Below are positions 27,576 to 60,773 of a stretch of 64,000 nucleotides of DNA, piece after piece. The translations under genes were made by a program, and so were the position numbers. The DNA is from Candidatus Latescibacterota bacterium (GTDB lineage: Bacteria > Latescibacterota > UBA2968 > GCA-2709665). The notes below the pieces were generated by a model that saw only the letters and a program-made list of their open reading frames with translations, was not told the origin of the DNA and did no database searches. Position 1 is the stretch's first letter, and every line of letters starts with the position of its first letter. The stretch is from positions 1,376,001 to 1,440,000 of the forward strand of contig OZ250150.1 in assembly GCA_965237675.1 (NCBI GenBank), given 5' to 3'.

Positions 27576-27832
27576 GGCACCTCCTTTCTCACCGAGCTAG
27601 TAGAACCGTTGGCACATGGAATTATACCTACAAAGGAAGGCGACGGCAAGAGCGTTGGCGACTTCAGGGCCGAAAATGTGTCCAGATCCACAAACTCAAA
27701 TGATGTCGGCCGTAGAGCCGCTCCCTGAGCCTGTCGATGGGTCGAATAGCGTCAAAGGGTAGGCGACGGGCTTTAAAACGCAGCCGGAACGGTTTGTCAG
27801 ATGAAATTTTCGCAAGTTCAGGCTTGCTATGT

Positions 27833-28357
27833 TCAGACAGAATTGTACGTCAACTCCCAATGCTTCTCTCCCGGCCACTCCCGGTACTGGATGTCCGTTC
27901 CGAAGCCACTCAACGTGGCAACGAGTTCCTGTTCTGTCGGGAAATTCTTCACGATGTCGTATTCCCGCCCATCCGAGAGAACCCGCCGCTCGATGGTATC
28001 GCCGTTGGAATCTTGGTGCCGTTGTGTGGCCATTCCGTCAACTCTGGGAACGTCATATTCGAGCTGGTCCGAAAACAGCACCAGCGCTCCGGGGATCAAC
28101 CTGCGGTGAAGCGATTGCAGAAACTCCCGCACGCGGGACCTGGGAATGTGCGACCACCACCAGACGGCGAATGCTGCCGGGAATGCGCCGGCCTCGGGGC
28201 CGAGGGAATACGCGTCTGCAAGACGGAATCTCACATGGGGGAGACGTTCACACCTCGATTGAGCCCGGGAGATCATCTCCGGGTTCACGTCGATTCCGAC
28301 AACCGACTTTGCAGTTTCCGCAAGGACCTCCGTCCAGTATCCGGTTCCACAGGCAAT
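27833..28357 (-). pseudogene. 3' part of class I SAM methyltransferase (duplicate of 37389-38084)
   Basis: High nucleotide similarity to 37390-37915; homology begins at the IACGTG motif; 5' part replaced by IS remnant. Confidence 0.8.
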
Positions 28358-28657
28358 CTGAAAGACACGCTGTTTGACCAGGTCCACCGTCGCATGATCG
28401 ACATAACTTGGATGCCGACGGTCGGTTAACGCCGCTACGATGCCACACAAAATGCCGATTTTGGACTCCACCTCACGAAGCAACAACGCCCCACTGTCGC
28501 TGGTCAGGATGCCCCATCGAAGGCGGCTTCCAGCCTTTTGCCAAAAAGACTTGCGAAATGGATTCTTTGATGATTGTCTTGAGCTCCCACGGTAATTTCC
28601 TCCAAGTTCATTGTTATCGATTATTTGTGTAACCAGTATACAATGACTTGGGTTAGG
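28358..28657 (-). mobile_element. IS1380-family remnant (left end and frameshifted transposase N-terminus)
   Basis: LEAAFDG/GILTSDSGALLLRE...DRRHPSYVDH...QRVFQIACG, typical of DDE_Tnp_1_4 N-termini. Confidence 0.75.
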
Positions 28658-28660
28658 AAA

Positions 28661-29566
28661 TTACCTCTTTTGTGAATTAACCAGGCTTGAGGTGTCCAGT
28701 CTGTTGAGTTGTCTGCCAAGTCGCTTTGCCAGCGCAGGGAACTCGCTGCCGAATAGGATATAGCCTTTCCGAGTTACTGACTGCCCCGGTGCAATATCAC
28801 CAAAAAGAGGTCTGCTATGCAGACAATGATGCCCGTCAGCGTTCTGAAAAGCCGAAGTTGCACACTCATATCCGAGCGCTATTGCCTTAGACCTATCATG
28901 AGAAACGGCACCCAGGATGGCCGGACGATCTATGGCCGTGTTGCTTCTTCCCCAGAACCATGCTGACCTGTTGACCCATTCTTTTTCGTATTCCATAAGA
29001 TCTGCCTGATACATGGTCCGAATATCCATAGTTCTGTGAAGATCGCCCATGCTCTCCGGCTTACCTTTCACCAGGATGTAGGATCGTTTGACTTCATTTT
29101 GATCCAGGAAATCAGATGACTTTGCCTGGAGACATCCACCATCAGAAACGACGTCATAAAATCCTGCGGATGACTGATTCGTGAGGGTCAACGTCAATTC
29201 TACTCTGTCCTCGAGTCCGGACAACGCTGCTTGGAGAATAAGACCTGTTATGAAGTTGTGTCGAATGACCTTCCCTGAGGGATCCTTTTGACGGTACGCC
29301 AACTGCTCTTTGATGTACTCAGGAGTTGTTTGCCATTCGTATGCCCACGCATTGTCTCCTGTCTTGGTCCATTGAGGGCAGATCTTCTGCCACATCATCG
29401 TCACGCCATTCATCGACGTGATGACTTCTGGAAACTGGAGGGACCACTTCAGATCCCAGTCCAGGTGATGAATATCAACGAATCGCGTTTTGGTAGGCCG
29501 TACTCGTATCACTTTTCTCTTCCCTTCTGCATGAACCACGACAAAATGTCGTAGATCTCCGCTCAT
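28661..29566 (-). CDS. Hypothetical protein (cassette-like, lower GC)
   Basis: Long ORF downstream of attC-like site 1; start uncertain. Confidence 0.55.
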   Translation of the reverse strand: MSGDLRHFVVVHAEGKRKVIRVRPTKTRFVDIHHLDWDLKWSLQFPEVITSMNGVTMMWQKICPQWTKTGDNAWAYEWQTTPEYIKEQLAYRQKDPSGKVIRHNFITGLILQAALSGLEDRVELTLTLTNQSSAGFYDVVSDGGCLQAKSSDFLDQNEVKRSYILVKGKPESMGDLHRTMDIRTMYQADLMEYEKEWVNRSAWFWGRSNTAIDRPAILGAVSHDRSKAIALGYECATSAFQNADGHHCLHSRPLFGDIAPGQSVTRKGYILFGSEFPALAKRLGRQLNRLDTSSLVNSQKR

Positions 29567-29617
29567 TCTGGAGTACACCAACTCTACGACTCGCTCATCA
29601 TCCCTGGGCTGCCGTGC

Positions 29618-29703
29618 TGCAAACGTTCCCGCGGTGCGCGAACTACCAAAGGCAGTTGCGCGAAGGGCCGAATGGTCTGAGCCGAACACGGTCGTGTTAC
29701 ACG
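29618..29703 (-). mobile_element. attC-like site 1 (degenerate)
   Basis: Homologous to sites 3 and 5; GTTACACG at 29696 is the reverse complement of CGTGTAAC at 30339. Confidence 0.7.
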
Positions 29704-30338: not shown

Positions 30339-30431
30339 CGTGTAACGTGCTCACTATTTACGACCCCGCGTATGCGGGGTGCCGGATGGCCAAGGGGCGT
30401 ATGCCCCGCAGCGTAAATGGGGTGTTATCGG
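30339..30431 (-). mobile_element. attC-like site 2
   Basis: TAAC...ATTTACG/CGTAAAT stem with two internal hairpins...GTTATCGG. Confidence 0.85.
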
Positions 30432-32121: not shown

Positions 32122-32323
32122 GGACCCGCTCCGTGGACATCGAAGAGGTATTTTTCCGTTTCGGTCATGAGGCAACCCTTTCTCTCACAGATCGTCGCAT
32201 TTGCGATTTGAGTTTGTTAGTGGGATGTGACAATCATCGGAACGAAATGGTTCGGTAAGCCCGCTGTGGCGTTCTCTGTTTGCTTCGTGATATTGATTCA
32301 CACCGATGCTCTCTTTTCTATTG

Positions 32324-32411
32324 CCGATAACGTTTTCCGTGCCCCCGAACCGCGAAGCGGTTGCGCGGAGGGCCGAATGGCCCGAAGCCGGGGGCACGGT
32401 CGTGTTATGTG
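32324..32411 (-). mobile_element. attC-like site 3
   Basis: CCGATAAC, 11-bp stem CCGTGCCCCCG/CGGGGGCACGG, two GAA-loop hairpins, GTTATGTG. Confidence 0.88.
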
Positions 32412-32529
32412 TTGTGCCAGCCGGGGGGCGAGGGCGGCCTTGCCACGGATGGCAAGGCCGCTTTGTCGCTGAAACAGAATTCCCGCTAAATGAATTATTC
32501 AGCGGAAATCTTGAAAGAAGAACGAGGGA

Positions 32530-32700
32530 TTATGTCTCCTGTTTCACCGATTCTTCTCTACTTTTCCGCACCAGCTTTTCAGGATGCTCTTTCTGGCGTC
32601 TTATGTAATACGCCACCAATTTCTTTGGGTCGTGATCACATTGCTCCGAAATCCTATGACGCACTTCACGAATCCTACGAATGGTCGGATCATCTTTCAT
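32530..32700 (-). CDS. Small putative antitoxin partner of the PIN toxin (56 aa)
   Basis: Manual translation MKDDPTIRRIREVRHRISEQCDHDPKKLVAYY...; overlaps the PIN stop. Confidence 0.65.
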   Translation of the reverse strand: MKDDPTIRRIREVRHRISEQCDHDPKKLVAYYIRRQKEHPEKLVRKSREESVKQET

Positions 32701-33175
32701 CTTCAATACCCCCCAGGAGTTCCAGCGGAGTCACCAACGTGGGCACATATAAGCCAAGAATAGTGTTGACTCGCTTGATGTGGGCAAACTTATTCGCGTT
32801 AGCCAGATGATTGCAATTCCATGTGAGCAAAAATTCACACTTATGATAAGAGGCTGTAGCAAGATGGAGTGCATCGCCCAGGGGATCATTAGGCATCATC
32901 TGGTGTTGGATATATGCTTCTACAATCTCAGCGATTTCTGGTTCAATTGGCAGCAGTGGCAAAGGAGCAACCAGGGCCAATACTCGGTCCTTGTTAGGAT
33001 ACTCTCCTACACTGAGTTCATCGATAACCGCTTCACTGGTGAAAATCTCATAACCCTCACGCCGTTCGTCCCACCATTGGCGTGTCCAAGTCCGCTTTGC
33101 AGCCATCTCGGGTTCTGTACGTGTTTCGTAATAGAAACTGGGAATAGATGTCTCGATGTAGACCTTAGGGATCAT
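32690..33175 (-). CDS. PIN-domain (VapC-like) toxin
   Basis: VYIETSI, SEAVIDEL, DALHLA, LLTWNCNHLAN. Confidence 0.85.
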   Translation of the reverse strand: MIPKVYIETSIPSFYYETRTEPEMAAKRTWTRQWWDERREGYEIFTSEAVIDELSVGEYPNKDRVLALVAPLPLLPIEPEIAEIVEAYIQHQMMPNDPLGDALHLATASYHKCEFLLTWNCNHLANANKFAHIKRVNTILGLYVPTLVTPLELLGGIEDER

Positions 33176-33364
33176 TATATATCATATTGTTTTTAATATG
33201 GTAAAGACGGTTCAATCCTGCTGCGATTGGTCACCTATTGACCTGCTATAAATCTACATATCTTAATCAAGTTCTTCAAGCGAAATTTCCGCTACTGAAG
33301 AACGTAGTGAGATTCTCTTGGGCGGCCAGGACGGCCGCCTGCTTTTGGAGGAAGGCTGGCATTG

Positions 33365-33454
33365 CACATAACGTTCTTGGGCCTTGCGAACCCGCGTCAG
33401 CGGGTTGTGTCGAAGCCCGACAGGGCTGAGCCGCAAGCGGACCTGTTAGCAGCC
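33365..33454 (-). mobile_element. attC-like site 4
   Basis: CACATAAC...TTGCG/CGCAA with internal hairpins...GTTAGCAGCC. Confidence 0.85.
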
Positions 33455-33583
33455 GGTGCTTCGGAGAAGGCATTCGACTGCCCCTCTACTCCAGGAATTG
33501 ACCTCTGTGCCTTTGTGGTGCGCCTTACGTTCCGCTTCCGGGAAGGACGTTGGCATAACAGCCTGGCCAGGTCGATCATTGAA

Positions 33584-35857
33584 TCAGAACTCGGCGGCAA
33601 TCATCGCGTACTGTCCGATGTTCGTTAATGTGGTTTCCAAGTGGTTTCCGTCGAACGTGACCTCCAGGTCATCTCCCGTGCAAACGTCCCATACGCGACG
33701 AGGAGTGCCCCGCTCCGTGAGCCACCAGCGCAGGTTCACTTCGGGTATCGTGGTCACATAGTCAAACTGTGGGCTGAAGCGCGGCCAGATCTCCGGCAGA
33801 TGCTCGACGCGCTCGCCGGTGTGATTGATCAGAAACAACACTTGGCTTCCTGGTTTTTCATTCGGAATCATCACGAGTTGGTTCGGGCCATCGGTCATCA
33901 GAGGCCGGCCCTCCGGGTAGAGCCAATCCACCACGGCGCCTAGAAGATCGCGGACCACCAGCAGGCGATATTCAAAATGAAGCTCCTCCACCGGCGCGGC
34001 CAGATAGACGACGCGCCCCTTGCCGACCGACCGGCAGGTGACGGCGGGACACAGAGCGTCGTCCGCGCGCCCACCGAAGACGATGTTCGCCACCACGTCG
34101 GTTCCCGGCCGCGCTTGGACGAACTCGAACCGATTGAGCGGCCACAGCTCATGCGAGCACCCCTCGGCCAGCCATTGACCCGGAACGCAGCGACCGTACG
34201 TGTCGAACGTCCCCGCGGCCCAGAGGTGTTGTTCGTAATCAGCGAATTGGTCGGGGTTCGGGTCCACGCGGTCCACGCCCAGAAGGTCCGCCAAGGCGAA
34301 GTTATCGCGCATCTCCTCAGGCTCGGCACCGTACAGGCTCGTCCGGTACGTTGCCAGGAGCCGCCCGCCCACCTTCACATATTCCGTGATGCCCTCGACT
34401 TCCTCCCGCGTGAGATGGCCGACGTTGGGCAGAAACAGAACAGGATACTTTGCCAACGCCGCTGGATCGGAGAGAACCCGCTCCTCGATCACCGATGTCG
34501 GCAAATGGTTGGCCAGCATGGTCGAGAAAGCCCCGCGACGGCAGGATTGCTGCGGGGGCGTGCGCACGAGATAGCCCGCCTCGGAGAGCGGGGCCTCGAG
34601 TTCCCCCGGACGGTCGGCGAGGTCCTGCTTGAACTGGCCGATGACATCGCGCGGACGATCGCGCATCACCAGGGGCTCGGCGCGGAACCGCACCCGCTCG
34701 AGCATCTCATACACCCGCACCGGCAAAACAAATGGAATAGCAACAAACGGTGACGGGTGGAGATCTTCGAAGAGTGATTCATTCGTCTCCAGGATCTCAA
34801 GGAGCTCCGCCAGCTCACGATTGGCTTTGTGGGGAGGCGACAGCCAAAGGTTCACGCCGCACGCCACCAGGACGCCCCCTCCGGAAGCAAAGCTGGCTGC
34901 CGCTTCCTCGACGAGTTCCATGCCGAAGCACTGCGTCCGAGACCAGCCCGTCAAGGCGCCGACGTATTGCCACATAGCCCAACCCGACGACTCGGCCAGA
35001 CTGGCCGCCTCGAGCCGATGAAGGAAGTCGCCCCCGGCCTCGTAGAGAAATCCATTGTGCACCTCCACGATCCTGCGTTCGGGCCAGTTGCCCACACCCA
35101 GGCCGTGCGTCAGCACCGGGATGTCCTTCTTCTTTCGCGTCGCGGCGGCGAATTCGAGAAAGACATCGCCGACGATCCTGCCGTACTGCAGGCTCCACTC
35201 TTCCAGCATCTCCTGGTCTTCCCGAGGCAGGCTGTGCGGATCGGGTGCATACGGCATTGGGCAGCCGAATTGCCTCTCGAACTTCTCGAGGCAATAGTCG
35301 CAGTAGCACAAGGGCGACTGCGGGGTGTGGTGCGAATGGTAAGGACAGGCAGAATCGGTGTAGATCGCGTCGACGTCGTGGTCCACCACTTGTGCGATGA
35401 AAGCGCAGATGGCCTCTCGGTACGGTGTGTTGAAGCAGACGTGCCGGTGAAATCCGCCGCCGTGGTGCCTCAGGACAGGAGCGTCGCCTTCGGGGCTGGG
35501 GCGGTACATCCACTCCGGATGATGGATCAGCATGTTGTCTTCGGGAATAATGTGCCCCACGGGAATGTACCCGATGACGCGCACGTCCCGCGCATGGGCC
35601 TCGGCGATGGTCTCGGCGAGCAGGTCGCGCTCACTTAATTGAGGGTGCGGGGGAAAGAACTCATTGGGGAAGACCGCCCATTTGCCCGCGCTGCCGAACC
35701 AAATGGCGTTGGCGTGGTATTTCCGCACGACATCGACGAGCTGCTTCGCGTCAAAGTCGATGTCGGGCCAGAAGGGCGGGTGGTATTGCTCTATCTGAAA
35801 GGTGCGCGCCCGCCGTACCCACTCGTGACTTGGCTTGATCATAGCGATGACCTCCAA
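33584..35857 (-). CDS. Glycoside-hydrolase-like protein (GHL6/GH42-type TIM barrel plus trimerisation domain) carried as a cassette
   Basis: DLLAETIAEAH, HPEW, CFNTPY, CYCDYC, LPNVGHL, GGRLLATY, GKGRVVY. Confidence 0.75.
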   Translation of the reverse strand: MEVIAMIKPSHEWVRRARTFQIEQYHPPFWPDIDFDAKQLVDVVRKYHANAIWFGSAGKWAVFPNEFFPPHPQLSERDLLAETIAEAHARDVRVIGYIPVGHIIPEDNMLIHHPEWMYRPSPEGDAPVLRHHGGGFHRHVCFNTPYREAICAFIAQVVDHDVDAIYTDSACPYHSHHTPQSPLCYCDYCLEKFERQFGCPMPYAPDPHSLPREDQEMLEEWSLQYGRIVGDVFLEFAAATRKKKDIPVLTHGLGVGNWPERRIVEVHNGFLYEAGGDFLHRLEAASLAESSGWAMWQYVGALTGWSRTQCFGMELVEEAAASFASGGGVLVACGVNLWLSPPHKANRELAELLEILETNESLFEDLHPSPFVAIPFVLPVRVYEMLERVRFRAEPLVMRDRPRDVIGQFKQDLADRPGELEAPLSEAGYLVRTPPQQSCRRGAFSTMLANHLPTSVIEERVLSDPAALAKYPVLFLPNVGHLTREEVEGITEYVKVGGRLLATYRTSLYGAEPEEMRDNFALADLLGVDRVDPNPDQFADYEQHLWAAGTFDTYGRCVPGQWLAEGCSHELWPLNRFEFVQARPGTDVVANIVFGGRADDALCPAVTCRSVGKGRVVYLAAPVEELHFEYRLLVVRDLLGAVVDWLYPEGRPLMTDGPNQLVMIPNEKPGSQVLFLINHTGERVEHLPEIWPRFSPQFDYVTTIPEVNLRWWLTERGTPRRVWDVCTGDDLEVTFDGNHLETTLTNIGQYAMIAAEF

Positions 35858-36205
35858 AATCTGTACCGTCTTTTTTTACCCGCAGAGCCCGCGGAGAACG
35901 CAGAGAACGGCCTTCCATGATTCACGGCCGCTCATCATGATCGAGAAGCCGAGAAATATCAGGCTGAACCCCAGCCAGCAGCCCAAGCTCGGCTGTCGGC
36001 ACCAACTCAGGACCCGAGCTAACAGGAGCAACGTCGAGAATGGACGAAGAACGCTTTGGTTGCCGGCGGAAGGTCCGCTCCCACGTTTAACCCGAGGACC
36101 TCAACGACCCTCCCCGCTGTCATGAGAATGGGAAGCAGGAGTGCAGGTAACGCCGCAACCAGAGCAGCACGGAGGTCATTCGCAGTCATTGGTTTCGACT
36201 GGCAT

Positions 36206-36293
36206 GGCTGCTAACGTTTTCCGTGCCCCCGAACCGCGAAGCGGTTGCGCGGAGGGCCGAATGGCCCGAAGCCGGGGGCACGGTGTTAGAGGC
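36206..36293 (-). mobile_element. attC-like site 5
   Basis: Interior identical to site 3 except a 3-nt deletion; GGCTGCTAAC...GTTAGAGGC. Confidence 0.88.
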
Positions 36294-36928: not shown

Positions 36929-36984
36929 ACGCACAATATACGCCAATGACGTATAGCACGCAAGGTCTTTACTTTGGCCACATG

Positions 36985-37020
36985 GCCTCTAACTACGGTA
37001 TTACCGAACAGTTACGGTAA
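36985..37020 (-). mobile_element. attI-like site A heading the five-cassette array
   Basis: R box matches the end of the HigBA cassette; followed by TACGGTATTACCGAACAGTTACGGTAA with no closing attC arm. Confidence 0.6.
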
Positions 37021-37388
37021 CGCGTACCTAATGCGAAGATCTGCGAACATTCGGGAACATGTTGCTTCGAAGCGTGTAGTCCGAACATGCTCAGGAATGC
37101 ATCCTATAGTCTTCACGATTGTACCAGAGTCTGATCTCGCGCTTAATTTCCCTGCAGCATATATATGAGGGTTTGTTGCCCTCGTTGGAAGAATTAAGTC
37201 GCGGTCGCGAGATATGTAGAAACGTGGGCGTATGAATTATACCTGCAAAGGAAGGCGACGGCAAGAGCGTGGGCGACTTCAGATCCACAAACTCATATGA
37301 TGTCGGCCGCAGAGCCGCTCCCTGAGCCGTCGAGCAGCAGCAGGCACGCCGTGCAGGTTGAAGTCATCGCAAATTCAGGCTCGTGGCG

Positions 37389-38084
37389 TTAGGCGAGACT
37401 TGTACGTCGGTTCCCAGTGTTTCTCGCCCGGCCACTCCCGGTACTGGATGTCCGTTCCGAAGGCACTCAACGCGGCAAACAGCTCCTGTTCTGTCGGGAA
37501 ATTCTTCACGATGTCGTACTCCTGTCCATCCGAGAGAACCGCCGCTCGATGGTATCGCCGTTGGAATCCTCGTGACGTTGCGCGGCCATTCCGTCAACTC
37601 TGGGAACGTCATATTCGAGCTGGTCCGAAAACAGCACCAGCGCTCCGGGAATCAACCTGCGGTGAAGCGATTGCAGAAACTGCCGCACGCGGGACCTGGG
37701 AATGTGCGACCACCACCAGACAGCGAACGCTGCCGTGAAGGCGCCCGCCTCGGGGCCGAGGGAATACGCGTCTGCAAGGCGGAATTTCACATGCGGGAAA
37801 TGTTCACACCTCGATTGAGCCCGGGAGATCATTTCAGGATTGACGTCAATTCCGACAACCGACTTTGCAGTTTCCGCAAGGACCTCCGTCCAGTATCCGG
37901 TTCCACACGCAATTTCGAGGACGTCGTGGCCGAGAAAGAGCTGCTGATATCTTCTCTTTTTCGCAACGCGGAGAGTTTCTGCGTCGTGAGTCAGATACCC
38001 CGCGCTAACGTCGTATTCCGGAGCGCGCGCGGCATAGTATCGGGCCGTTTCTTCGGATGTCCCATCGCTGGAATGAGGCGTCAT
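37389..38084 (-). pseudogene. Class I SAM methyltransferase with a 1-bp deletion near 37540
   Basis: YYAARAPEYD, VLEIACGTG; GAGAACCGCC here versus GAGAACCCGCC in the 27.9 kb copy. Confidence 0.8.
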
Positions 38085-38091
38085 CTCGACC

Positions 38092-38517
38092 CTATTCGCA
38101 GTTCTGTCTCTCGAAATTCCGAACAACCATTCCCACGCACTCCGAGAAACCCTGCTTGACGTAGAATTCAGCCACATCCCGGTCGCACACCAGGTCTACC
38201 ATATAAAGATGCCCGACCTGATCGAGCATTCGCCTGACAAGTTCGGCGCCAATGCCCATACCCTGGTATTCCGGGAGTACGCTGAGGTGAGGAATATATG
38301 CACAGGACACACCGTCCGAGATGGCGGAAATCCAACCGACGACCTGTCCTTCCGGCGAAATAGCCAGAACATGGAAATCGCTGCCCTGTAAAATTCGGAG
38401 ATGCGCCTCCGGGGAGGGAGGATCAGGCCAGTTTTCGAAGTGACCCTCAAGATTGTCGGGCCGGATTCCCTCAAGGGTACTCTGGTATCTGATTGACATC
38501 GGGTCGTGTGCGTTCAT
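38092..38517 (-). CDS. GNAT family N-acetyltransferase
   Basis: VLPEYQGMGIG motif A; FYVKQGF. Confidence 0.88.
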   Translation of the reverse strand: MNAHDPMSIRYQSTLEGIRPDNLEGHFENWPDPPSPEAHLRILQGSDFHVLAISPEGQVVGWISAISDGVSCAYIPHLSVLPEYQGMGIGAELVRRMLDQVGHLYMVDLVCDRDVAEFYVKQGFSECVGMVVRNFERQNCE

Positions 38518-39457: not shown

Positions 39458-39538
39458 CTCCTGGACTTACCAACTCAATACAATTCGACTTCCCGTTTAG
39501 CGGGCGTGTCCTCACAGTTCTCAGGAAACGAATACTTT

Positions 39539-39590
39539 GCGTAACTTTGGTTTTGCCAAACAGGGACGGAAATACGGACCGGACCGGAAA
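39539..39590 (-). mobile_element. attI-like site B (diverged)
   Basis: GTAAC-TTTGGTTTTGCCAAACAGGGACGGAAATACGGACCGGA aligns with the 46967 copy. Confidence 0.5.
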
Positions 39591-49191: not shown

Positions 49192-49241
49192 GACGCCTGT
49201 CAGATGGCAGGCGGCGGCCTCTCGCCTTAAGGAGGATTGAG

Positions 49242-50027
49242 ATGACGGATGACGAGAAGTATCTTTTCGATTTGACCGGGTACCTGGTGCTGAGGGATGT
49301 CCTGAAGCCGGAGGAAGTCGAGCGCTGCAATGCGGCCATCGACAGACACATCGATCAGCTCAAGGAGAGGGAGGGGTCGCTCACGGTGGGCGCGCCGGCG
49401 CTTGGGGGTACGTCGAACAGGAAGGATCTGGGCGGAATGCTGGCATGGGAGCGACCGTGGTGTGAACCCTTCAGGGCGATGCTCGTGCATCCCCGTGTGA
49501 TGCCTTGTCTGCACGTGATTCTGGGCAAAGGATATCGGCTGGATCACGGGCCCGGTCTGATTGCCATGGACAAGGGCTGCGAAGGGGGCACGTTGCACGG
49601 GGGCGGTGTGGAACGTCCGGATCTTTCAGAGGCGTATTTCTTCAAGAACGGACGTATCTATTGCGGATTGACCGTCGTGGAATATCTATTGGCGGACGAG
49701 GGGCCGGGAGACGGGGGCGTGGCCGTGGTTCCTGGCAGTCATAAGGCGAATCTGGCGTGTCCGCGCGAGATGAACCGGGGCGAGAAGTACGGCGAGCATG
49801 TGGTGGAGGTGAACGGACGGGCCGGAGACGCGGTGATCTTTACCGAGACTCTGACACACGGGACGTTGCCGTGGGAGGCCGAACACCAGCGGCGGGCGCT
49901 GTTGTACAAGTTCAGTCCCTCATTCCAGGCCTACGGGGTGGGCGCGCATACGGTGACGTATCCGGACTACATCATGGACATGACGGATGCGGAGCGGGCG
50001 GTGATGGCGCAGGCGCACATGCGGTAA
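49242..50027 (+). CDS. PhyH family dioxygenase
   Basis: YLFDLTGYLVL, LHGG, VPGSHK, LTHG. Confidence 0.88.
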   Translation: MTDDEKYLFDLTGYLVLRDVLKPEEVERCNAAIDRHIDQLKEREGSLTVGAPALGGTSNRKDLGGMLAWERPWCEPFRAMLVHPRVMPCLHVILGKGYRLDHGPGLIAMDKGCEGGTLHGGGVERPDLSEAYFFKNGRIYCGLTVVEYLLADEGPGDGGVAVVPGSHKANLACPREMNRGEKYGEHVVEVNGRAGDAVIFTETLTHGTLPWEAEHQRRALLYKFSPSFQAYGVGAHTVTYPDYIMDMTDAERAVMAQAHMR

Positions 50028-50149
50028 AACTGTTGTGTGCAAGCGAAACATCGAAACAAAGGCTTGAAAGGGTGGAGCGGACATTCTTGTCTGCTCATAG
50101 ACATCAATTCGGAACCTCGGAATCCTGTGTCCGGGAACGCGGGTGGACC

Positions 50150-55583: not shown

Positions 55584-56807
55584 GTGCGCGCAGAGATCGT
55601 CATGATTGGTACCGAGCTTCTGCTTGGAGAGATCGTGGATACCAATGCGAATCTGCTGGCCGTGGCGTTGCGGAATATTGGCCTGGATCTCTACTACAAG
55701 ACCACCGTGGGGGACAACGAGGAACGAATTACACAGGTGCTTAACCTTGCGTTGGATCGGTCTGACGTAGTGATTACGTCTGGGGGCATCGGGCCGACGG
55801 TGGATGACGTGACCCGGCAGGCGATTGCCCGGGCAACGGGGCGGAAGCTGGTATACAGCAAGGAACTGGAAGGGCAGATTGCGGCGCGCTTCCGCGGCTT
55901 CGGACGGAAAATGGCCGCGAATAACAAGCGGCAGGCGTATCTTCCTGAGGGAGCGCTGCCGCTGGAGAATCCCGTCGGAACGGCGCCGTGTTTTCTGAGC
56001 GAAGACACGAAGGGGCGGGGGTTCATTGTCTGCCTGCCCGGTGTTCCCCGGGAGTTGGCGCATATGATGGAGCATACCGTCCTCCCGATACTCGCGGAAA
56101 GGATGGGCGGGGTGAAGGTCATCCGGGTGCGGGTACTTCGTACCTGCGCGGTAGGGGAGAGCAATATCGACCGGGGGATCGGGGACCTGATGGCGTCGTC
56201 GAACCCGACGGTAGGTCTGGCAGCGCATGCGGGGCAGACGGACGTTCGCGTGACAGCCAGAGCCGAATCGGAGGCGGAAGCGGATGCGCTGATTGCCGGT
56301 ATGGAACTCGAACTCCGGAATCGGTTGGGTGTGGCGGTCTATGGTGAGGAGAAAGAAACGGTGGCCGAGGTTGTGGGCAGGCTGCTGGCGCAACGGGATC
56401 TGAAGCTTGGGGTGGTGGATACACTTACCGGGGGACAAATCTGCCGGGAGTTGAATGAAGCTGGATTCGGAAGCGTGGTTTTGGCGGACCTTAATGGGCG
56501 CGACGCCGAGCAGGCGCTGGCGGCCGCGCGCACCGACTTGTCACAAGGGATCGACGACCCGACGCTGGCGGGACTGCTGGCGGCGAGAGTCGCGCCTGAA
56601 GGCGGCGTTGGGCTGGCGATGATCGGACCTTGTAACGGGAAATCTACGGTAATTGCGATCCACGGGCCTGGAGATCTGCGGACGAACGAGGCGGGGCGGC
56701 GCTTTGAGGATACAGACCTTATGCGGCGGTGGCTGGTGATTCAGGGCTTGGACCGTGTGCGGCGGGCGCTGCTGGGTGAGATGCATTCGCCGGTGGATTG
56801 GAATTAG
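55584..56807 (+). CDS. cinA: CinA-like competence/damage-inducible protein
   Basis: IGTELLLGEIVDTN, GGIGPTVDDVT, NPVGTAP, LPGVPRE; C-terminal PncC-like part divergent. Confidence 0.88.
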   Translation: MRAEIVMIGTELLLGEIVDTNANLLAVALRNIGLDLYYKTTVGDNEERITQVLNLALDRSDVVITSGGIGPTVDDVTRQAIARATGRKLVYSKELEGQIAARFRGFGRKMAANNKRQAYLPEGALPLENPVGTAPCFLSEDTKGRGFIVCLPGVPRELAHMMEHTVLPILAERMGGVKVIRVRVLRTCAVGESNIDRGIGDLMASSNPTVGLAAHAGQTDVRVTARAESEAEADALIAGMELELRNRLGVAVYGEEKETVAEVVGRLLAQRDLKLGVVDTLTGGQICRELNEAGFGSVVLADLNGRDAEQALAAARTDLSQGIDDPTLAGLLAARVAPEGGVGLAMIGPCNGKSTVIAIHGPGDLRTNEAGRRFEDTDLMRRWLVIQGLDRVRRALLGEMHSPVDWN

Positions 56808-57030
56808 CCGGCAAGTCGGCGGGACGCCGCAATACATGGTCGTCTTGCGAGATCGACACTCACGGTAGTGATTTGGGCGACCGGATGTGAGTTTGGGAAG
56901 GACCCCGTCTGTGTGATAGATGGCCGGATGTCCGTGGCCGCCGCGGGGGACTTGACCGCCGATCCGCCACAAGTTAAGGCATCGGCGTGTATCATAATGA
57001 GCCATCAGCGGCGTATCAGGAGGATGATCC

Positions 57031-58413
57031 ATGGCTGGCACCAGAGACATACGCTCCAGGCTTGAGCTATTCGTCGACGACTGGCTGATCGACACGATGA
57101 CGGACACAAGCCTCAAGCTCCATCCTCCGGTGCCGGCTGAGGTCGTCCTCGATTTCGACCAACCCTGGGAAGGGGAGACGTCGTGGGTCGCCAACGTCAT
57201 CCTCGACGACGGGCGCTACCGCCTCTGGTACCGCGCCACCGGCCCTGAGGGAACGAACCGGACGACCTGTTACGCCGAAAGCCCCGACGGCATCCACTTC
57301 GAGCGTCCAACCCTCGGGCTGCACGAGTTCGAGGGCTCGAAGGAGAACAACATCGTCATGGGGGCCGCGCACTGGAACGCCTGCGTCTTCAAGGATCCCA
57401 ATCCGGCCGCGCCAGACTCACAGCGGTACAAGGGCTTCCTGAGGGGCGAAAAGCTGGACAAGCGCGCCACGATTTACGGCTATGGTTCGCCCGACGGCAT
57501 CCATTGGGAGCTGATCCAGGACGGGCCGATCCTACATGCGCCACCCGACGACCACCCCAGCTTCGACTCACCCAACGTGGCCTTCTGGGACGTCAATATT
57601 CGCAAGTACGTCAGCTACTTGAGGGGTTTCACGCCCGATTGCGATCGTAGCGGAGCCCCCGCTCAGGGTGGCGTATACCGGTCGATTCGGAGGGCCGAGT
57701 CGGACGACTTCCTGGACTGGACCGTGCCGGAGCTGATCGACATGGGCGGAAGGCAGAAGGAGCACCTGTACACCAACGCAGCGACCCTATACTTCCGCGC
57801 TCCCCACGTCTACCTGATGTTCCCCAAGCGGCTTAGGCTTGGCCGGAAGTTCCACAAGGACTGGGTGTCCGACGGCCTGTCCGAGGGGGTCTTGATGACC
57901 AGCCGGGACGGCGTCCGGTGGGACCGCCGGTTTATGGGTCCGTTCATCCGTCCAGGCCTTGACTCAAGGAACTGGAATGAGCGGAATATGGCCGCCGGCG
58001 TCGGCGTTGTGCCCACCGGGGCCGAGGAGATCTCGATCTACTACGTAGAGAACTACCGGAACCCGACGTGCCGGCTCCGTCGAGGCGTCCTTCGGACCGA
58101 CGGTTTCGTCTCCGTCAACGCACCCTTCGGCGGCGGCGAGTTCGTAACCAAGCCCTTCACCTTCGCTGGCAGTGAGCTGGTCATCAACTACTCGACCTCG
58201 GTGGCCGGCGAAATCCGGTTCGAGATGCAGGACGAGCAGGGCAGCCCCATCGAGGGCCACACGCTCTCCGAAAGCGCCGAGATCTTTGGAGACGAGATTG
58301 CGCGGGCGGTCAGCTGGGACAGCGGCTCCGACGTGTCTGCGCTGGCCGGAAGGCCGGTGCGTCTTCGCGTGGCGATGAAGGAGGCCGACCTCTACGCCAT
58401 ACGCTTCCGGTAG
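57031..58413 (+). CDS. Hypothetical glycosidase-like beta-propeller protein
   Basis: ELFVDDWLI, YAESPDGIHF, SRDGVRW, RTDGFVS. Confidence 0.65.
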   Translation: MAGTRDIRSRLELFVDDWLIDTMTDTSLKLHPPVPAEVVLDFDQPWEGETSWVANVILDDGRYRLWYRATGPEGTNRTTCYAESPDGIHFERPTLGLHEFEGSKENNIVMGAAHWNACVFKDPNPAAPDSQRYKGFLRGEKLDKRATIYGYGSPDGIHWELIQDGPILHAPPDDHPSFDSPNVAFWDVNIRKYVSYLRGFTPDCDRSGAPAQGGVYRSIRRAESDDFLDWTVPELIDMGGRQKEHLYTNAATLYFRAPHVYLMFPKRLRLGRKFHKDWVSDGLSEGVLMTSRDGVRWDRRFMGPFIRPGLDSRNWNERNMAAGVGVVPTGAEEISIYYVENYRNPTCRLRRGVLRTDGFVSVNAPFGGGEFVTKPFTFAGSELVINYSTSVAGEIRFEMQDEQGSPIEGHTLSESAEIFGDEIARAVSWDSGSDVSALAGRPVRLRVAMKEADLYAIRFR

Positions 58414-58435
58414 CGGATGGTACTTGCGCCCCTAG

Positions 58436-60302
58436 TCTCTAATTAAGCGGGTTTTTTGAGATTTTTATGTACAAAAGTACCGGAAAGACTTATCTTTGTT
58501 GAAGATAGCAGTATCCGACGAGAAATTGCTACTCCAACGAAGGAGGCCTTTCCGGTGAAAAGAATATCGGTAAAAGAAAGCCGCAGGAACAGTGTTAATT
58601 GTGGGCGCAAGGTACGTGCTCGGCATCAGCTTGGCGGTCGTTTTTGTGCGCAAGGCAAGCCAATGTTTGGCAGCACCTATGTGCATTACGAGGTCAGCGC
58701 CCAGCCGGAAGGGATGAGTTACGGTGGCATAGCGGCCGTGCATCGTCTGGTGACGAAGTTGGGCTTGGTCGAAGGCATCGACGCGACGTTGAAGTTGCTG
58801 AAGGTGCATCTGCCGTATCATGAGTCGGATCACGTGTTGAACCTTGCCTACAACGTGATGTGCGGCGGCACGCGTCTGGAAGACATCGAGCGTTTGCGGC
58901 ATGACGGGGCCTACATGAATGCCTTGAGCGCGAAGCTGATCCCGGACCCGACGACTGCGGGCGACTTTACGCGTCGCTTCACGGAAGCGGACGTGATCGG
59001 GCTGATGGACTGCATTAACGCGGTACGGTCTAAGTTGTGGCGCACGCGGGCTGCCAGTTTGCTTTCTCCGGTGGCGTACATCGACGTGGATGGCACAAGC
59101 GCCCCAACGTATGGGGAGAAGAAGGGCGGCATGGACATCTCCTACAAGGGCGTGTGGGGGTATGCGCCCCTGATCGTATCGTTGGCCAATACCAAAGAGG
59201 TGCTGTATATCGTCAACCGTCCGGGCAACGCGTCTTCTCACCAGGGGGCCGCCCCCTGGATCGATGCGTCCATCCGGGTGGTGAAGCCCCACGCGGGGCG
59301 CGTGTGCCTACGCGGCGACACGGACTTTTCGCTTACGGCTCACCTCGATCGCTGGGCGAAGGACGTCGATTTCATCTTCGGGATGGACTGCAATGACGCC
59401 TTACGAACACGCGCCGAGGCCCTTGACGAAGCCAACTGGCAGCGCCTGCACCGACCTGTAGCACCCCAGAAAAGGCGGCGGCGCGACAATGAGAAGCAGC
59501 GTATCGTCAAGGCGCGGGGCTACCTCAAGCTGGCGCTGAACTTCGAAGACGTGGCTGAGTTTGACTATCAGCCCGGCAAGTGCGAACGGTCCTACCGCGT
59601 TGTGGCGCTGCGAAAAAACATCAGTAAGGCCAAAGGTGAGCAGACCCTCTTCGACGAAATCCGCTATTTCTTCTACATCACCACGCGCGACGACCTGACC
59701 CCCGCCGAGGTCGTCTTTGCTGCCAACAAACGATGCGACCAGGAAAACGTCATCGAACAGCTCAAGAACGGCGTCAATGCCCTGCGCGTGCCCTTGTATG
59801 ACTTGATCAGCAACTGGGCCTACATGGTCATCGCCGCGCTGGCCTGGAACATCAAGTCGTGGTTTGCCTTGATGATGCATCGAAAAAACCATCGCCGACA
59901 CTATATCCGTATGGACTTTCGGACCTTCCTCTCACACATCATCCTTTTTCCCTGTCGTGTCGTGAGACACGCACGAAGCACCACCGTGCGCATCATCGGC
60001 TATCAGCCGTCACTGAATAGACTCTTGAGCGCCTGGGCCACCATCGAACGCACCGGCTTCACCTGACACCGGTACGGACCGTGACCATAGACCACCAGAC
60101 CCACGACGCCTACCGCGACGCAACGGACAAATACGCCCACCCCACAAATAATGGGTCGCTTTACGACTCATACATACACGCAACAAACCGCAGAACGACC
60201 TCCCGTCGACCCCATTAGGCGGCACCGATACTTCTATCAACCAAACCGCAACACAAATTGGCCTTTCTGTTCAGCAAACAACAATACTCGCTTATTTAAG
60301 GC
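58436..60302 (+). mobile_element. IS1380-family insertion sequence
   Basis: Imperfect TIRs (14/20 match); CTAG at 58432-58435 and 60303-60306. Confidence 0.8.
58456..60066 (+). CDS. IS1380-family DDE transposase
   Basis: HLPYHESDH, IPDPTTAGDF, IDVDGT, LRGDTDF, RCDQENVIEQLK. Confidence 0.9.
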   Translation: MRFLCTKVPERLIFVEDSSIRREIATPTKEAFPVKRISVKESRRNSVNCGRKVRARHQLGGRFCAQGKPMFGSTYVHYEVSAQPEGMSYGGIAAVHRLVTKLGLVEGIDATLKLLKVHLPYHESDHVLNLAYNVMCGGTRLEDIERLRHDGAYMNALSAKLIPDPTTAGDFTRRFTEADVIGLMDCINAVRSKLWRTRAASLLSPVAYIDVDGTSAPTYGEKKGGMDISYKGVWGYAPLIVSLANTKEVLYIVNRPGNASSHQGAAPWIDASIRVVKPHAGRVCLRGDTDFSLTAHLDRWAKDVDFIFGMDCNDALRTRAEALDEANWQRLHRPVAPQKRRRRDNEKQRIVKARGYLKLALNFEDVAEFDYQPGKCERSYRVVALRKNISKAKGEQTLFDEIRYFFYITTRDDLTPAEVVFAANKRCDQENVIEQLKNGVNALRVPLYDLISNWAYMVIAALAWNIKSWFALMMHRKNHRRHYIRMDFRTFLSHIILFPCRVVRHARSTTVRIIGYQPSLNRLLSAWATIERTGFT

Positions 60303-60306
60303 CTAG

Positions 60307-60467
60307 TGTTCTGTCCCGGAAATAAGTTGCCAAAATTCGGCCGTCGAGTCGCCCGTCTCGCAAGACGCCTGAACGCAGGCGACCTGCGTAAGTTCGGCGA
60401 GCGAAGGCAACGCCGCGAGACGGGATGAATCGGCGGGAGAATGGTGAGGTATTTTTGGGACAGGACA
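60307..60467. mobile_element. 161-bp MITE flanked by CTAG
   Basis: TIRs TGTTCTGTCCCGGAAATA / TATTTTTGGGACAGGACA; CTAG at 60303 and 60468. Confidence 0.82.
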
Positions 60468-60474
60468 CTAGATT

Positions 60475-60773
60475 CCCTTCATGGCCGAGATGCCGCCCAT
60501 GATGTCACGAATGTGAGCGACGACCCGACGCTGGCGGGACTGCTGGCGGCGAGGGTCGCGCCTGAAGGCGGCGTTGGGCTCGCGATGATCGGTCCTTGCA
60601 ACGGGAAATCCACAGTTATTGCGGTGCGTGGGCCCGGAGATCGGAGTACGGATGAGCAGGGGCGACGTTTCGATGATTCCGACCTGGTTCGACGCTGGAA
60701 CGTGATTCAGGGTCTGGATCGGGTGAGGAGGGCGGTGTTGGGTGTGATGAAGTCACCGGTAGATTGGAATTAG
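60475..60773 (+). pseudogene. Diverged duplicate of the cinA 3' end
   Basis: DDPTLAGLLAARVAPEGG...SPVDWN, homologous to 56490-56807. Confidence 0.88.

Follow-up and report, generated by a model that had tools for sequence, protein, structure and literature searches.

Genes followed by truncated copies of their own 3' ends beside an integron-like cassette array in a Latescibacterota genome: possible scars of additive integration

Within a 64,000-nucleotide stretch of the genome of a Candidatus Latescibacterota bacterium (contig OZ250150.1, positions 1,376,001 to 1,440,000; hereafter the window), a member of an uncultured lineage, we identified three direct repeats that share one order: a complete gene comes first, and a 5'-truncated copy of its 3' end lies a few kilobases downstream. 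The anchors, which are ordinary genes for a SAM methyltransferase (MT), a PhyH-family dioxygenase and CinA, lie within or next to a cassette array of integron-like character. In all three pairs the divergence between the copies is non-neutral, having accumulated mostly under purifying selection, and at cinA and PhyH the two copies differ in allelic affinity, that is, in their nearest relatives. We hold it to be an evenly balanced proposition that each pair is a scar of additive integration, the incoming DNA being allelic, derived from related strains and joined by way of one homologous crossover and one illegitimate joint.

Self-comparison of the window by blastn returned eight non-trivial pairs, three of which are the MT, PhyH and cinA repeats claimed in an initial annotation of this DNA; whole-genome comparison found exactly two copies of each in the 5.6 Mb genome. 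The repeats stand where they had been placed, with the strand of MT and PhyH corrected to minus and the MT repeat narrowed to part of the gene and its flank. A genome-wide screen recovered 91 local two-copy repeats, 64 of which were classed. The order of full gene followed by 3' piece accounts for eight of the 64, and three of these eight fall within this 33-kb span, a clustering that supports additive integration; one of the other five resembles the pairs described here. In three further pairs the order is reversed and the 3' piece precedes the full gene, an arrangement that the proposed mechanism could not make, so other processes must also leave 3' pieces. In the 14 genus relatives each of PhyH and MT is single-copy, pieces in G012 and a 51-bp PhyH piece in G005 aside, and a search of 40 relatives with cinA showed the extra 3' piece in no other genome. 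The 14 genus species yielded no donor genome.

The cinA locus comprises the following features.

55584-56807, plus strand: full cinA (TIGR00200, 270.9 bits, above cut-off); repeated part 56552-56812
57031-58413, plus strand: ORF of 460 aa, conserved downstream neighbour of cinA
58437-60301, plus strand: IS1380-family insertion sequence (NF033539, 301 bits; cut-off 180)
60302-60471, no strand assigned: MITE/REP-like repeat
60472-60524, minus strand: remnant (final ~50 bp) of a small gene whose intact form occurs in G012
60518-60811, plus strand: cinA 3' fragment (85 codons and stop, then ~40 bp of flank), within open ORF 60441-60773

The two copies align at 56539-56812 and 60503-60778 (81.2% over 276, E 1e-69), with true homology beginning at CGACGAC (56552 and 60518) and the first ~90 bp nearly identical. 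The 5' 955 bp of cinA are 93.3% identical to G008 and 89.7% to G012. The last ~165 bp of the in-place gene (about 56645-56807) fall to 73.8% and 73.2% against these genomes, versus 88.7% to G001 and 87.5% to G003, and by these affinities form a foreign patch. The last 168 bp of the fragment are 95.2% identical to G008 and 94.6% to G012, marking the fragment as the resident allele. That the fragment matches the 5' part of the gene, with a resident-type fragment and a foreign in-place end, supports additive integration. The fragment meets the remnant of the small gene at a 7-bp microhomology, CGACGAC (60518-60524). Beyond the fragment, cinA-downstream sequence extends for just ~40 bp before the BNR gene, so additive integration needs a further deletion at this locus, which counts against it.

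The initial annotation had taken the material between the cinA copies to be a variable block from another strain, containing a glycosidase-like gene. Neither description held: the ORF at 57031-58413 has no match in Pfam or NCBIfam and adjoins cinA in 13 of 13 genus relatives (90.5-99.1%), and the rest is largely a later IS. The IS1380 element is a later insertion, flanked by the target duplication CCTAGT (58431-58436 and 60302-60307); it has three more genomic copies at 98.6-99.8%, and contigs of public runs X17 and X1 link 58430 to 60302 directly. The first part of the MITE/REP-like repeat (60302-60409) is also found in G008, and 60400-60472 has many dispersed copies. Positions 56344-58436 are 98-100% identical among this genome (G000), G008 and G012, the 165-bp patch alone standing at 71%. 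The inter-copy material is thus no single coherent foreign block, which also speaks against additive integration: the donor would have to be mosaic, or one or more additional short imports must have occurred.

The native character of this region bears on a possible but doubtful alternative, in-place tandem duplication, whereby unequal or illegitimate exchange between sister chromosomes at the same microhomologies would have given two identical copies that were later trimmed and altered by imports or gene conversion. The observed joints are exactly like those of tandem duplications, the cinA unit would include the native neighbour ORF, the surroundings of the patch are 98-100% sister-like, and the MT copies are each other's closest match; local duplications of HicB and of a uxuA-like 5' piece in G008 also speak for it. 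However, it requires three or more events per locus, and the flank of the cinA fragment is of a short-intergenic type, unlike the long intergenic region now behind full cinA. The fragment and the full copy of PhyH likewise differ in flank type, and the low dN/dS ratios would require nearly all divergence to have been imported from working alleles.

These ratios (omega) are 0.18 for cinA (dS 0.61), 0.25 for PhyH (dS 0.33) and 0.17 for MT (dS 0.23), against roughly 0.55-0.6 expected, by our own estimate, for a fragment dead from birth, and indicate that most of the divergence arose while both copies were working alleles. Over 85 codons, the two cinA copies show 28.3 synonymous versus 18.7 non-synonymous differences. 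The earlier proposals that many cinA differences are synonymous and that the copies diverged as functional alleles are thus borne out.

The second pair lies at the edge of the array.

45564-45795, minus strand: PhyH 3' fragment, 5'-truncated at 45795/45796
45796-47094, no strand assigned: material between the copies (small ORF, DUF2442, DUF4160, an attI-like site and the promoter-like element D5c)
45823-45996, minus strand: small ORF
46311-46619, plus strand: DUF2442
46612-46872, plus strand: DUF4160
47095-48009, minus strand: full PhyH-family dioxygenase gene (Pfam PhyH, 1.3e-22); repeated part 47096-47396

All 15 genus genomes, counting G000, have a PhyH match. No conserved gene lies between PhyH and the variable array, and synteny with all relatives ends at 47096-47099. 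The repeat pairs 45597-45795 with 47198-47396 (87.9% over 199, E 6e-67), and a second match of 41 nt (45564-45604 with 47096-47136) is set apart by an in-frame 69-bp deletion in the copy, located between CAGCGCCTC repeats. The fragment also carries a TAC>TAG change two codons ahead of the normal stop. The in-place 3' end is 97.0% identical to G008, and the fragment is at most 88.9% identical to anything and retains a G009/G014-type downstream flank and HicB. From this we read the full gene as sister-like and the fragment as a decayed allele, older or foreign. The joint lies about 25 bp past the stop of the small-ORF cassette, with microhomology of at most 2-5 bp. The block between the copies is missing in G008, where HicB is 206 bp from PhyH, and run X1 has zero depth across 45824-46871.

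The PhyH joint is common to the sister species G012, which has it with a 63-bp piece and likewise carries an MT fragment where this genome has one. Since G012 is an independent assembly of another species, this tells against the least probable reading, an assembly artefact in which alleles of co-occurring strains were put in tandem; a chimera, raised in the initial annotation as a potential refutation, is therefore unlikely for PhyH and MT. The relatives named by our recombinase search are metagenome-assembled, so the genome studied here may be too, and the public runs examined contain several related strains. Run evidence covers PhyH and cinA, from X15 and X16, which may be the source sample. 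Contigs of both runs span the PhyH fragment, block and full gene unbroken with 0 differences, and the cinA fragment is present at single-copy depth alongside the in-place end (14 versus 15-18 in X15, 64.8 versus 50-57 in X16). Joints to unrelated DNA at 7-bp microhomologies are not produced by assemblers; at cinA, the single-copy depth of both copies is the sole observation opposing a chimera.

The third pair is that of MT.

27593-28357, minus strand: repeat copy A (MT_A), MT 3' part and flank, within open chimeric ORF 27833-28486
28347-28700, minus strand: 5' remnant of a transposase gene/IS of the DDE_Tnp_1_4 kind (Pfam DDE_Tnp_1_4, residues 1-48)
37208-37913, minus strand: repeat copy B, the 3' ~525 bp of MT_B and ~180 bp of downstream flank
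37364-38177, minus strand: MT_B, the 'full' class-I SAM methyltransferase gene (Pfam Methyltransf_25, 1.5e-19)

Copies A and B align at 83.3% over 766 columns (E = 0), with a core of 92-94%, and the repeated portion is limited to the 3' ~525 bp of the gene and ~180-245 bp of flank. MT is matched in 15 of 15 genus genomes including G000, as a fragment only in G012, and MT_B is syntenic with the single MT of relatives. Although the repeat is real, MT_B is not the intact gene it had been taken for: a 1-bp deletion near 37540, absent from the other seven aligned sequences (six relatives and MT_A), splits it into ORFs 37506-38177 and 37364-37612. The chimeric ORF is open and encodes 217 aa, an N-terminal transposase fragment followed by MT with a complete SAM-binding Methyltransf_25 domain. 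As the chimera is intact and the 'full' gene frameshifted, the low omega of this pair could mean two working paralogues in one genome. The nearest relative of each copy is the other (92.3% identical over 521 aligned positions, against at most 89.1% to any relative). Differing nearest relatives thus support the original proposal at cinA and PhyH, and the MT copies go half way towards the refutation it named, mutual closeness with neutral divergence: they are mutually closest, with a divergence that is not neutral.

At the MT joint (28347-28360), the transposase remnant is fused in frame to MT at the microhomology CAGATTGCCTGTGG, where an IS-internal site and MT motif I agree in 5 exact bases and are similar at about 10 of 12. 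Besides the self-match and shorter partial ones, the remnant has 23 genomic matches at 73-79% over most of its length; the complete IS that represents this Pfam family in the window is IS1380. Shorter remnants of the joint's IS occupy the same site in G008, G012 and G001, and the differing lengths, longest in G000, suggest successive inward deletions from a once-complete IS. Such a joint, inside an IS remnant that is truncated elsewhere in relatives, fits in-place deletion trimming a once-complete second copy. An improbable reading, applying mainly to MT, is therefore that two complete copies (paralogues or stacked array heads) existed and the second was trimmed by IS-associated or microhomology deletion; the open chimeric ORF with its full domain is in keeping with this, as is the MT fragment of G012, cut at another point. 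It leaves the arrival of the second copy unexplained, however, and none of the 14 genus relatives has two complete copies of MT, PhyH or cinA.

In keeping with the illegitimate junctions initially proposed, all three truncated copies begin abruptly against unrelated DNA with short microhomology, at sites of different kinds: IS-internal for MT, inside a small gene for cinA and at a cassette end for PhyH. Under additive integration, an incoming block would be added beside the gene, the resident region not being replaced by two homologous crossovers. A homologous crossover within the 3' part of the conserved gene would fix one side, and an illegitimate joint with a few bases of microhomology would close the other. 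The incoming DNA may be a linear piece, as in homology-facilitated illegitimate recombination (HFIR), or, more simply, a circular intermediate that one crossover would insert, the route put forward for rhs tips. The product would be a complete gene, then the block, then one 3' end left as a 5'-truncated fragment, with the position of the crossover setting which copy carries the resident allele. Later deletions would have removed 69 bp from the PhyH fragment and sequence past the cinA fragment, and the IS1380 insertion and short homologous imports would be other later events. The order of events, a linear or circular intermediate and a single shared origin for all three pairs are what we infer; linear HFIR, as first suggested, circular single-crossover insertion, and tandem duplication with allelic replacement are indistinguishable here.

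The cassette array occupies 26-47 kb, lacks an integrase and contains the following elements.

27619-27676, minus strand: D5a, promoter-like TTGCCG-17 nt-TATAAT, directed into the cassette downstream (also D5b, 37234-37291, and D5c, 47040-47097)
36204-36284, minus strand: D7, attC-like imperfect palindrome (...CTAAC / stem / GTTAG...; second copy 32320-32400)
36982-37125, minus strand: attI-like site following MT_B and D5b, with GTAGTTAG at its end
39536-39590, 41998-42070 and 46964-47018: shorter attI-like relatives

The D5 hexamers were read directly from the sequence. The longest attI-like site shares 93-94% identity with C1:4731782-4731853 and C1:4757703-4757774 across 72 nt, and 97% with C1:4760146-4760177 across 32 nt; the alignable region of ~140 bp lies directly 3' of tyrosine-recombinase stop codons elsewhere in the genome, the recombinase gene with matching sites being 3.3 Mb from the array. 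The GH cassette begins at G/TTAGCAGCC immediately past D7, a start also found after the attI-like site at C1:4757707, and array cassettes recur in the recombinase-linked array. The multiple attI-like sites had been attributed to stacking of blocks; the sites exist, and stacking could account for half of them at most, since only two of the four immediately follow a duplicated anchor gene. The G008 array has local duplications of its own, with HicB and a uxuA-like 5' piece each present twice.

Sedentary chromosomal integrons and integrase-less attC clusters have cassettes in one orientation, attC-like palindromes and a promoter upstream of attI. The array shares the single orientation, the palindromes, the G/TT cassette start after an attI-like or attC-like site, a promoter-like element upstream of the attI-like site, and cassettes in common with the recombinase-linked array. 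It differs in having four attI-like sites within one array and no integrase in the window; the linked recombinase does not reach the IntI cut-off, and model positions 175-234 are missing from it.

Phage 21 integration in icd leaves an icdC 3' pseudogene. The same outcome is described for e14 (PMC13626634). As far as that account goes, the architecture of icd-e14-icdC is that of our pairs: a full gene with a replaced 3' end, an inserted block and the original 3' fragment, with many synonymous differences between the 3' ends and direct repeats that permit block loss and chimeric gene formation. A site-specific mobile element that brought a replacement 3' end would also suit the nearly identical, att-core-like first ~90 bp of the cinA repeat and the attI-like sites just behind two full genes. 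We consider this highly improbable, as neither Pfam scans of 77 ORFs nor tblastn with the genome's integron-like recombinase detected a recombinase gene in the window or the three inter-copy blocks, there was no sign of an att core, the joints are of different kinds, and the supposed cargo at cinA is native.

Natural transformation of Streptococcus pneumoniae yields merodiploids and partial duplications (Johnston et al. 2013, PMC3784515). The described likeness is that exchange with incoming DNA can yield partial tandem duplications rather than replacements. Those pneumococcal duplications reportedly arise between repeated IS-like sequences and are unstable, unlike the pairs here.

For the T6SS effector-immunity arrays of Vibrio cholerae, HFIR has been put forward (Kirchberger et al. 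2017, PMC5361080). Those arrays, as presented there, share with additive integration a homologous anchor in a conserved upstream gene with one illegitimate end, addition that pushes old material downstream, and alleles within one genome that do not cluster together; the last is true here of cinA and PhyH, whereas the MT copies do cluster. In experiments by de Vries and Wackernagel and by Prudhomme et al., HFIR is said usually to delete recipient DNA without duplicating part of the anchor.

In C-terminal displacement of rhs (and CDI) genes, dissociated 3' 'tips' are arrayed behind the full gene, and homologous recombination with circular intermediates has been proposed (Jackson et al. 2009, PMC2935791). 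In the features reported for rhs, as here, 5'-truncated fragments repeating part of the gene follow the full gene, an incoming alternative displaces the incumbent 3' end, and the fragments decay through frameshifts and stop codons. In contrast to rhs, whose genes are polymorphic toxins with unrelated tips, the genes here are ordinary enzymes whose 3' ends are alleles of one sequence (75-92% identical), with just one fragment per gene and no immunity gene logic. By analogy, then, the architecture described here resembles rhs C-terminal displacement or HFIR, and may reflect additive integration at ordinary genes in and beside a cassette array.

Comparison of the window with itself by blastn listed eight non-trivial repeat pairs, including the three that the initial annotation had described as a complete gene, intervening cargo and a diverged 3' copy. 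In the genome as a whole, which comprises 5.6 Mb in three contigs, each of these repeats occurs twice, as the window pair only, and the three duplications are therefore real, with corrections needed to how they had been described. They involve the following sequences.

Repeat pairs in the window, with identity from self-blastn
27593-28357 and 37208-37913, minus strand: SAM methyltransferase gene (MT), 83.3% over 766
45597-45795 and 47198-47396, minus strand: PhyH, a dioxygenase-family gene, 87.9% over 199
56539-56812 and 60503-60778, plus strand: cinA, 81.2% over 276

At all three loci the complete gene is followed, along the direction of transcription, by a displaced, 5'-truncated copy of its 3' part (the fragment). 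The DNA between the two copies (the block) starts in each case inside a conserved gene, in the 3' portion that is duplicated at 75-97% identity, such that a homologous anchor is present. Caution is needed in annotating the ORFs 27833-28486 and 60441-60773, both of which are chimeras produced by recombination. A fourth pair (6111-6362 and 21125-21378) was considered as the same architecture and rejected, as it belongs to a dispersed family with about 90 genomic matches. The ~250-bp unit of this family, at 6083-6379 and 21020-21378, coincides in part with small ORFs (~100 aa) that lack a Pfam match, and many of its members lie in dense arrays at C1:1.546-1.581 Mb.

In a local self-comparison of the genome, a check that the initial annotation had proposed, 2311 direct pairs passed our filters and 91 were two-copy genome-wide; the 64 pairs with an identity of at least 72% were then classed. 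By our reading the order of full gene then 3' piece is found in eight of the 64, three being those of the window, and the reverse order in three. Among the five pairs outside the window, two have an omega (dN/dS) near 1.1-1.2, one of which has in-frame stops in the fragment, one is a recent duplicate at 98%, and one is probably a stand-alone response-regulator paralogue. Only one of the five resembles the window's cases: at C1:2683537-2683952 and 2711506-2711921 (84%, omega 0.24), a full gene of 259 aa is followed, after 27.5 kb, by a 3' piece within a 147-aa ORF. Three such pairs inside 33 kb of 5.6 Mb are a clear hot spot.

Fourteen further species of the genus could be compared, the nearest being G008 and G012 (cinA protein identity of 93% and 90%, respectively). 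cinA is single-copy in the genus (38 matches in the 41 genomes searched, including the one under study), and the extra 3' piece is found in this genome only. The ORF at 57031-58413 directly adjoins cinA in 13 of 13 genus relatives, and the native order in G008 is cinA, an ORF of this type, a 108-bp repeat and a BNR gene; the ORF between the cinA copies is native, not imported. Behind it lies an IS1380 element (58437-60301) whose transposase scores 301 bits against NF033539 (cut-off 180) and which has a CCTAGT target duplication on either side. Contigs from two of the four sequencing runs examined carry the empty site, with 58430 joined to 60302, and the element is a later insertion. An ISEcp1-like mobilization of the cinA fragment by this element was rejected because the element went in as a simple insertion, flanked by a target duplication of its own, and because a ~215-bp spacer, partly native in G008, lies between it and the fragment. 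A MITE/REP-like short repeat with roughly 60 copies genome-wide (80-96%) occurs at 60305-60343 and 60400-60472, as well as at 42253-42291 and 42393-42440.

The cinA fragment starts at CGACGAC (60518), where a 7-bp microhomology joins it to the final ~50 bp of a small gene on the minus strand, of which G012 has an intact version at that place. The first ~90 bp of the repeat are nearly identical between the two copies, and the last 168 bp compare with the relatives as follows.

Identity of the last 168 bp of each cinA copy to four other species of the genus
Fragment: 95.2% to G008, 94.6% to G012, no value for G001 and G003
In-place end: 73.8% to G008, 73.2% to G012, 88.7% to G001, 87.5% to G003

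For the 5' part of the gene (955 bp), the identities are 93.3% (G008) and 89.7% (G012), and organism D of runs X17-X20 reaches 96.6% in the cinA 5' part. Because it is the fragment that matches G008 and G012, and not the in-place end, the fragment is the resident cinA allele and the end of the working gene a foreign patch. In a sliding comparison, positions 56344-58436 are 98-100% identical among this genome, G008 and G012, falling to 80-93% farther upstream, and a 165-bp patch of the in-place cinA forms a 71% island inside this stretch. The fragment ends with ~40 bp of a short, G001-like type of intergenic sequence and lacks the ~170-bp insertion now found behind the full gene. On these comparisons at least three ancestries meet within 4.3 kb, and a single donor block cannot explain everything. 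Besides the ORF at 57031-58413 (460 aa, of no known family), the 56344-58436 stretch takes in the 3' end of cinA and the intergenic sequence, and its flanks are just 80-93% identical, which suggests either recent spread between species or extreme constraint.

PhyH is likewise single-copy in the 14 relatives, except that G012 has an additional 63-bp piece and G005 a 3' piece of 51 bp. Over 199 bp, its in-place 3' end matches G008 at 97.0%, while the fragment reaches at most 88.9% to any sequence compared, and 87.9% to the full copy. The fragment has an in-frame 69-bp deletion between two CAGCGCCTC repeats and a TAC>TAG change two codons ahead of the normal stop, and retains a downstream flank of the type seen in G009 and G014 together with a HicB gene, the PhyH-flank-HicB arrangement of G008, G009 and G014. 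Behind the full gene lie a promoter-like element (D5c), an attI-like site, a DUF4160/DUF2442 pair and a small ORF, a block that is absent from G008 and from the public run X1. The joint, GTAGTGGC/AACTGAG at 45795/45796, is also present in G012, elsewhere in its array, and is thus either older than both genomes or was moved between them. Its microhomology is weak (2-5 bp at most), as judged solely against a diverged cassette copy in G001. Recombination of the IntI type at secondary sites was also considered for the joints and set aside; GTT is found at the PhyH joint alone, and PhyH itself has none there. In G005 a distance of ~630 bp separates the 51-bp piece (G005:C184:40711-40761, 88%) from its full gene, and this species may thus offer a further example of the displacement seen here.

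To estimate the selection under which the copies diverged, each fragment was compared with its full copy by the method of Nei and Gojobori.

Divergence between fragment and full copy
cinA: 85 codons, dS 0.61, omega 0.18
PhyH: 65 codons, dS 0.33, omega 0.25
MT: 173 codons, dS 0.23, omega 0.17

By our own estimate, fragments dead since an in-place duplication would have an omega near 0.55-0.6; the observed values of 0.17-0.25 therefore indicate that divergence mostly accrued in working genes, which bears out the proposal of the initial annotation, made for cinA, that the copies diverged as functional alleles. For cinA and PhyH this means that most of the divergence arose in other genomes, and for MT the low omega could also be compatible with two working copies in one genome. 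Tandem duplication in place, followed by later allelic replacement, is an account that we regard as possible, if on balance improbable.

The MT pair differs from the initial annotation in extent, for the duplication stands and only the 3' ~525 bp of the gene and its flank are duplicated. A complete, single gene syntenic with the full copy (MT_B, 37364-38177, minus strand) is present in 13 of 14 relatives, and the remaining one, G012, has only a fragment, at the site of the fragment here (MT_A, within ORF 27833-28486) and with a different truncation point. The sole match to D5 or to the attI-like head of the array behind the G012 fragment is 23-37 nt, an uninformative length. MT_A is an open, 217-aa chimera in which residues 1-48 match a DDE_Tnp_1_4 transposase and the remainder is methyltransferase from motif I on. 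MT_B carries a 1-bp deletion in a G-run near ~37540 that is missing from MT_A and all six aligned relatives and splits the frame; this may be a real frameshift, making MT_B a pseudogene, or a consensus error. Copies closest to each other and diverging neutrally were what the initial annotation had set against its own reading, and the first of these holds for MT, where the copies are mutual nearest (92.3%, versus no more than 89.1% for either against any relative), while their divergence is non-neutral (omega 0.17).

At the MT joint, internal sequence of a transposase gene of the DDE_Tnp_1_4 (IS1380-like) kind runs into methyltransferase motif I (IS CAGATGGCCTGTGG; MT GAAATTGCGTGTGG; joint CAGATTGCCTGTGG), with a microhomology of five exact bases and about 10/12 similar. 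The same IS is found at the same site in relatives, where its remnants are shorter, which implies that a once-complete IS was eaten inward to an extent that differs by lineage. These remnants favour an origin of the fragment by trimming of a second complete copy, a distinctly unlikely explanation for the pairs overall that applies mainly to MT, where trimming of a once-longer copy fits at least as well as one-step integration. The MT block is present in G008 with its order unchanged. A different copy of the IS1380 family adjoins the G008 methyltransferase gene (L033/L034, G008:C1:2520501-2552000).

For the three pairs together, we give about an even chance to additive integration, in which one homologous crossover within the anchor and one microhomology joint would add a block beside the resident gene; a circular intermediate would be the simplest account of the partial duplication of the anchor. 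The initial annotation had proposed that blocks from related strains were stacked in tandem by homology-facilitated illegitimate recombination (HFIR). This proposal is partly supported. The homologous anchors and the microhomology joints (7 bp at cinA, 5 at MT, weak at PhyH) agree with it; as to a foreign ancestry of the added DNA the picture is mixed, the PhyH block being absent from G008 and run X1, the MT block present in G008, and the cinA block native and 98-100% sister-like apart from the 165-bp patch.

An assembly artefact is highly improbable, as the independent assembly of G012 has the same PhyH joint and, at the MT_A site, a fragment of MT. Contigs from runs X15 and X16, possibly the source sample (share of words 0.97 and 0.96, respectively), tile 45300-50091 with 0 differences and so span the PhyH fragment, block and full gene. 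At cinA the evidence is depth: the fragment bin and the in-place end are both at single-copy depth, which argues against two alleles at one locus. Among the contig pieces listed the joint at 60518 is uncovered, which is neither support nor refutation, and contigs of X15 break off at 56552 and resume at 56558, which is the behaviour expected at the beginning of a shared sequence.

Two of the three pairs lie in or beside a hypervariable array of small modules (~26.1-47.1 kb). The site of this array, between a periplasmic-binding-protein gene (~25-26 kb) and PhyH, is fixed in all relatives examined, and the species differ in the order of the modules and in which of them are lost or duplicated.

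Integron-like features of the array
36982-37125, limits by eye: attI-like homology, equivalent to the ~140 bp directly 3' of tyrosine-recombinase stop codons
36989-37060 (72 nt): 93-94% to C1:4731782-4731853 and C1:4757703-4757774; 32 of the 72 nt, 97% to C1:4760146-4760177
39536-39590, 41998-42070 and 46964-47018: shorter attI-like sites, ending ...CCGTAGTTA
32320-32400 and 36204-36284: attC-like imperfect palindromes (D7), 96% mutual identity, TAAC...GTTAG hairpins, at cassette boundaries
32306-33453: PIN module, 95% to C1:4725417-4726561
33466-36215: glycoside hydrolase (GH) cassette, 97% to C1:4754960-4757707

The initial annotation's label of attI-like is justified by position and by the 93-94% similarity to the recombinase-flanking ~140 bp. 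Two of the attI-like sites have the promoter-like D5 (TTGCCG-17-TATAAT) upstream of them, and D5 lies downstream of each of MT_A, MT_B and PhyH. G/TTAGCAGCC opens the GH cassette both behind D7 in the window and behind the attI-like site at C1:4757707, and attC-like sites with G/TT cassette junctions were found at the D7 and GH-cassette-start boundaries, the ones examined. At its distal end, this cassette shows no clean agreement between the window and C1 copies. TAAC...GTT structures resembling D7 are visible near 30350-30420 and 33350-33440. A two-ORF module at 26740-27593 (205 aa and ~100 aa, of no family) travels as a unit, forming the far end of the array here and in G008 and lying beside HicB and PhyH in G001, G009 and G010. 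The G008 array has repeats of its own: it contains HicB twice, and a second copy of the 5' part of a uxuA-like gene lies ahead of a block and then the full gene. Upstream of the array, an AAA_5 ATPase gene and a McrBC-family gene (6e-80) form a McrBC-type restriction pair (15790-18254).

Pfam searches of 55 + 22 ORFs found no recombinase or integron integrase in the window, nor was one found in the syntenic regions of six relatives, and tblastn with the genome's integron-like recombinase had no match. A site-specific element that replaces the 3' end of its target, as e14 does with icd, is thus very unlikely, the more so as the fragment-side joints are three unrelated sequences with no common att core at both block ends. 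The best IntI candidate, C1:4757865-4758902, scores 214.8 bits against TIGR02249 (cut-off 265), in which positions 175-234 of the model have no counterpart, and 219.3 against NF040815 (cut-off 220); it is not a canonical IntI and lacks the IntI-specific stretch. As the array has no integrase by this measure, it falls outside the integron family. Relatives of this recombinase at 50-58% identity are from Firmicutes and many MAGs. Its surroundings, C1:4725000-4760600 (L001-L003, L005), hold one complete tyrosine recombinase gene (290-346 aa) and two 3' fragments of it, each followed by a ~140-bp attI-like region and then cassettes. Of seven papers that co-mention Latescibacter* and integron, none has these terms in its title or abstract.

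Displaced 3' ends are a well-known signature at polymorphic toxin loci and prophages. At rhs loci, where a full gene is likewise followed by 5'-truncated fragments repeating part of it, homologous recombination with circular intermediates has been proposed for the displacement of C-termini (PMC2935791); rhs tips are non-homologous and come with cognate downstream genes, whereas the two copies here represent alleles of a single sequence and stay colinear as far as the stop codon. The same displaced-3'-end pattern is seen in T6SS immunity arrays, where HFIR has been proposed (PMC5361080), and the three pairs mimic the icd-e14-icdC arrangement (PMC13626634). Here it is ordinary genes that bear the signature, in an uncultured phylum and at or close to the border of an integron-like array.

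The displaced ends record a route of entry, in which DNA is added beside a homologous anchor and does not replace it, and allow allelic blocks of different species-level lineages to be traced within 4 kb, cinA alone having three ancestries. As the repeats are direct, recombination between them would delete an added block and leave a chimeric gene, making the additions reversible. The pattern also suggests how arrays acquire several attI-like sites. A more novel lead than the displaced ends is the integrase-less cassette system itself, with several attI-like sites and a putative trans-acting, non-canonical recombinase. We tentatively suggest, as a rather doubtful reading, that a genus of Candidatus Latescibacterota keeps an integrase-less cassette array at a fixed chromosomal site whose heads (promoter, attI-like site and first cassettes) would spread between strains by homologous docking on the 3' ends of genes, leaving displaced 3' ends behind, and whose cassettes would be moved in trans by an Xer-like recombinase without the IntI-specific domain, 3.3 Mb away. 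If true, this would be a second, homology-driven route by which integron-like arrays grow and multiply their attI sites.
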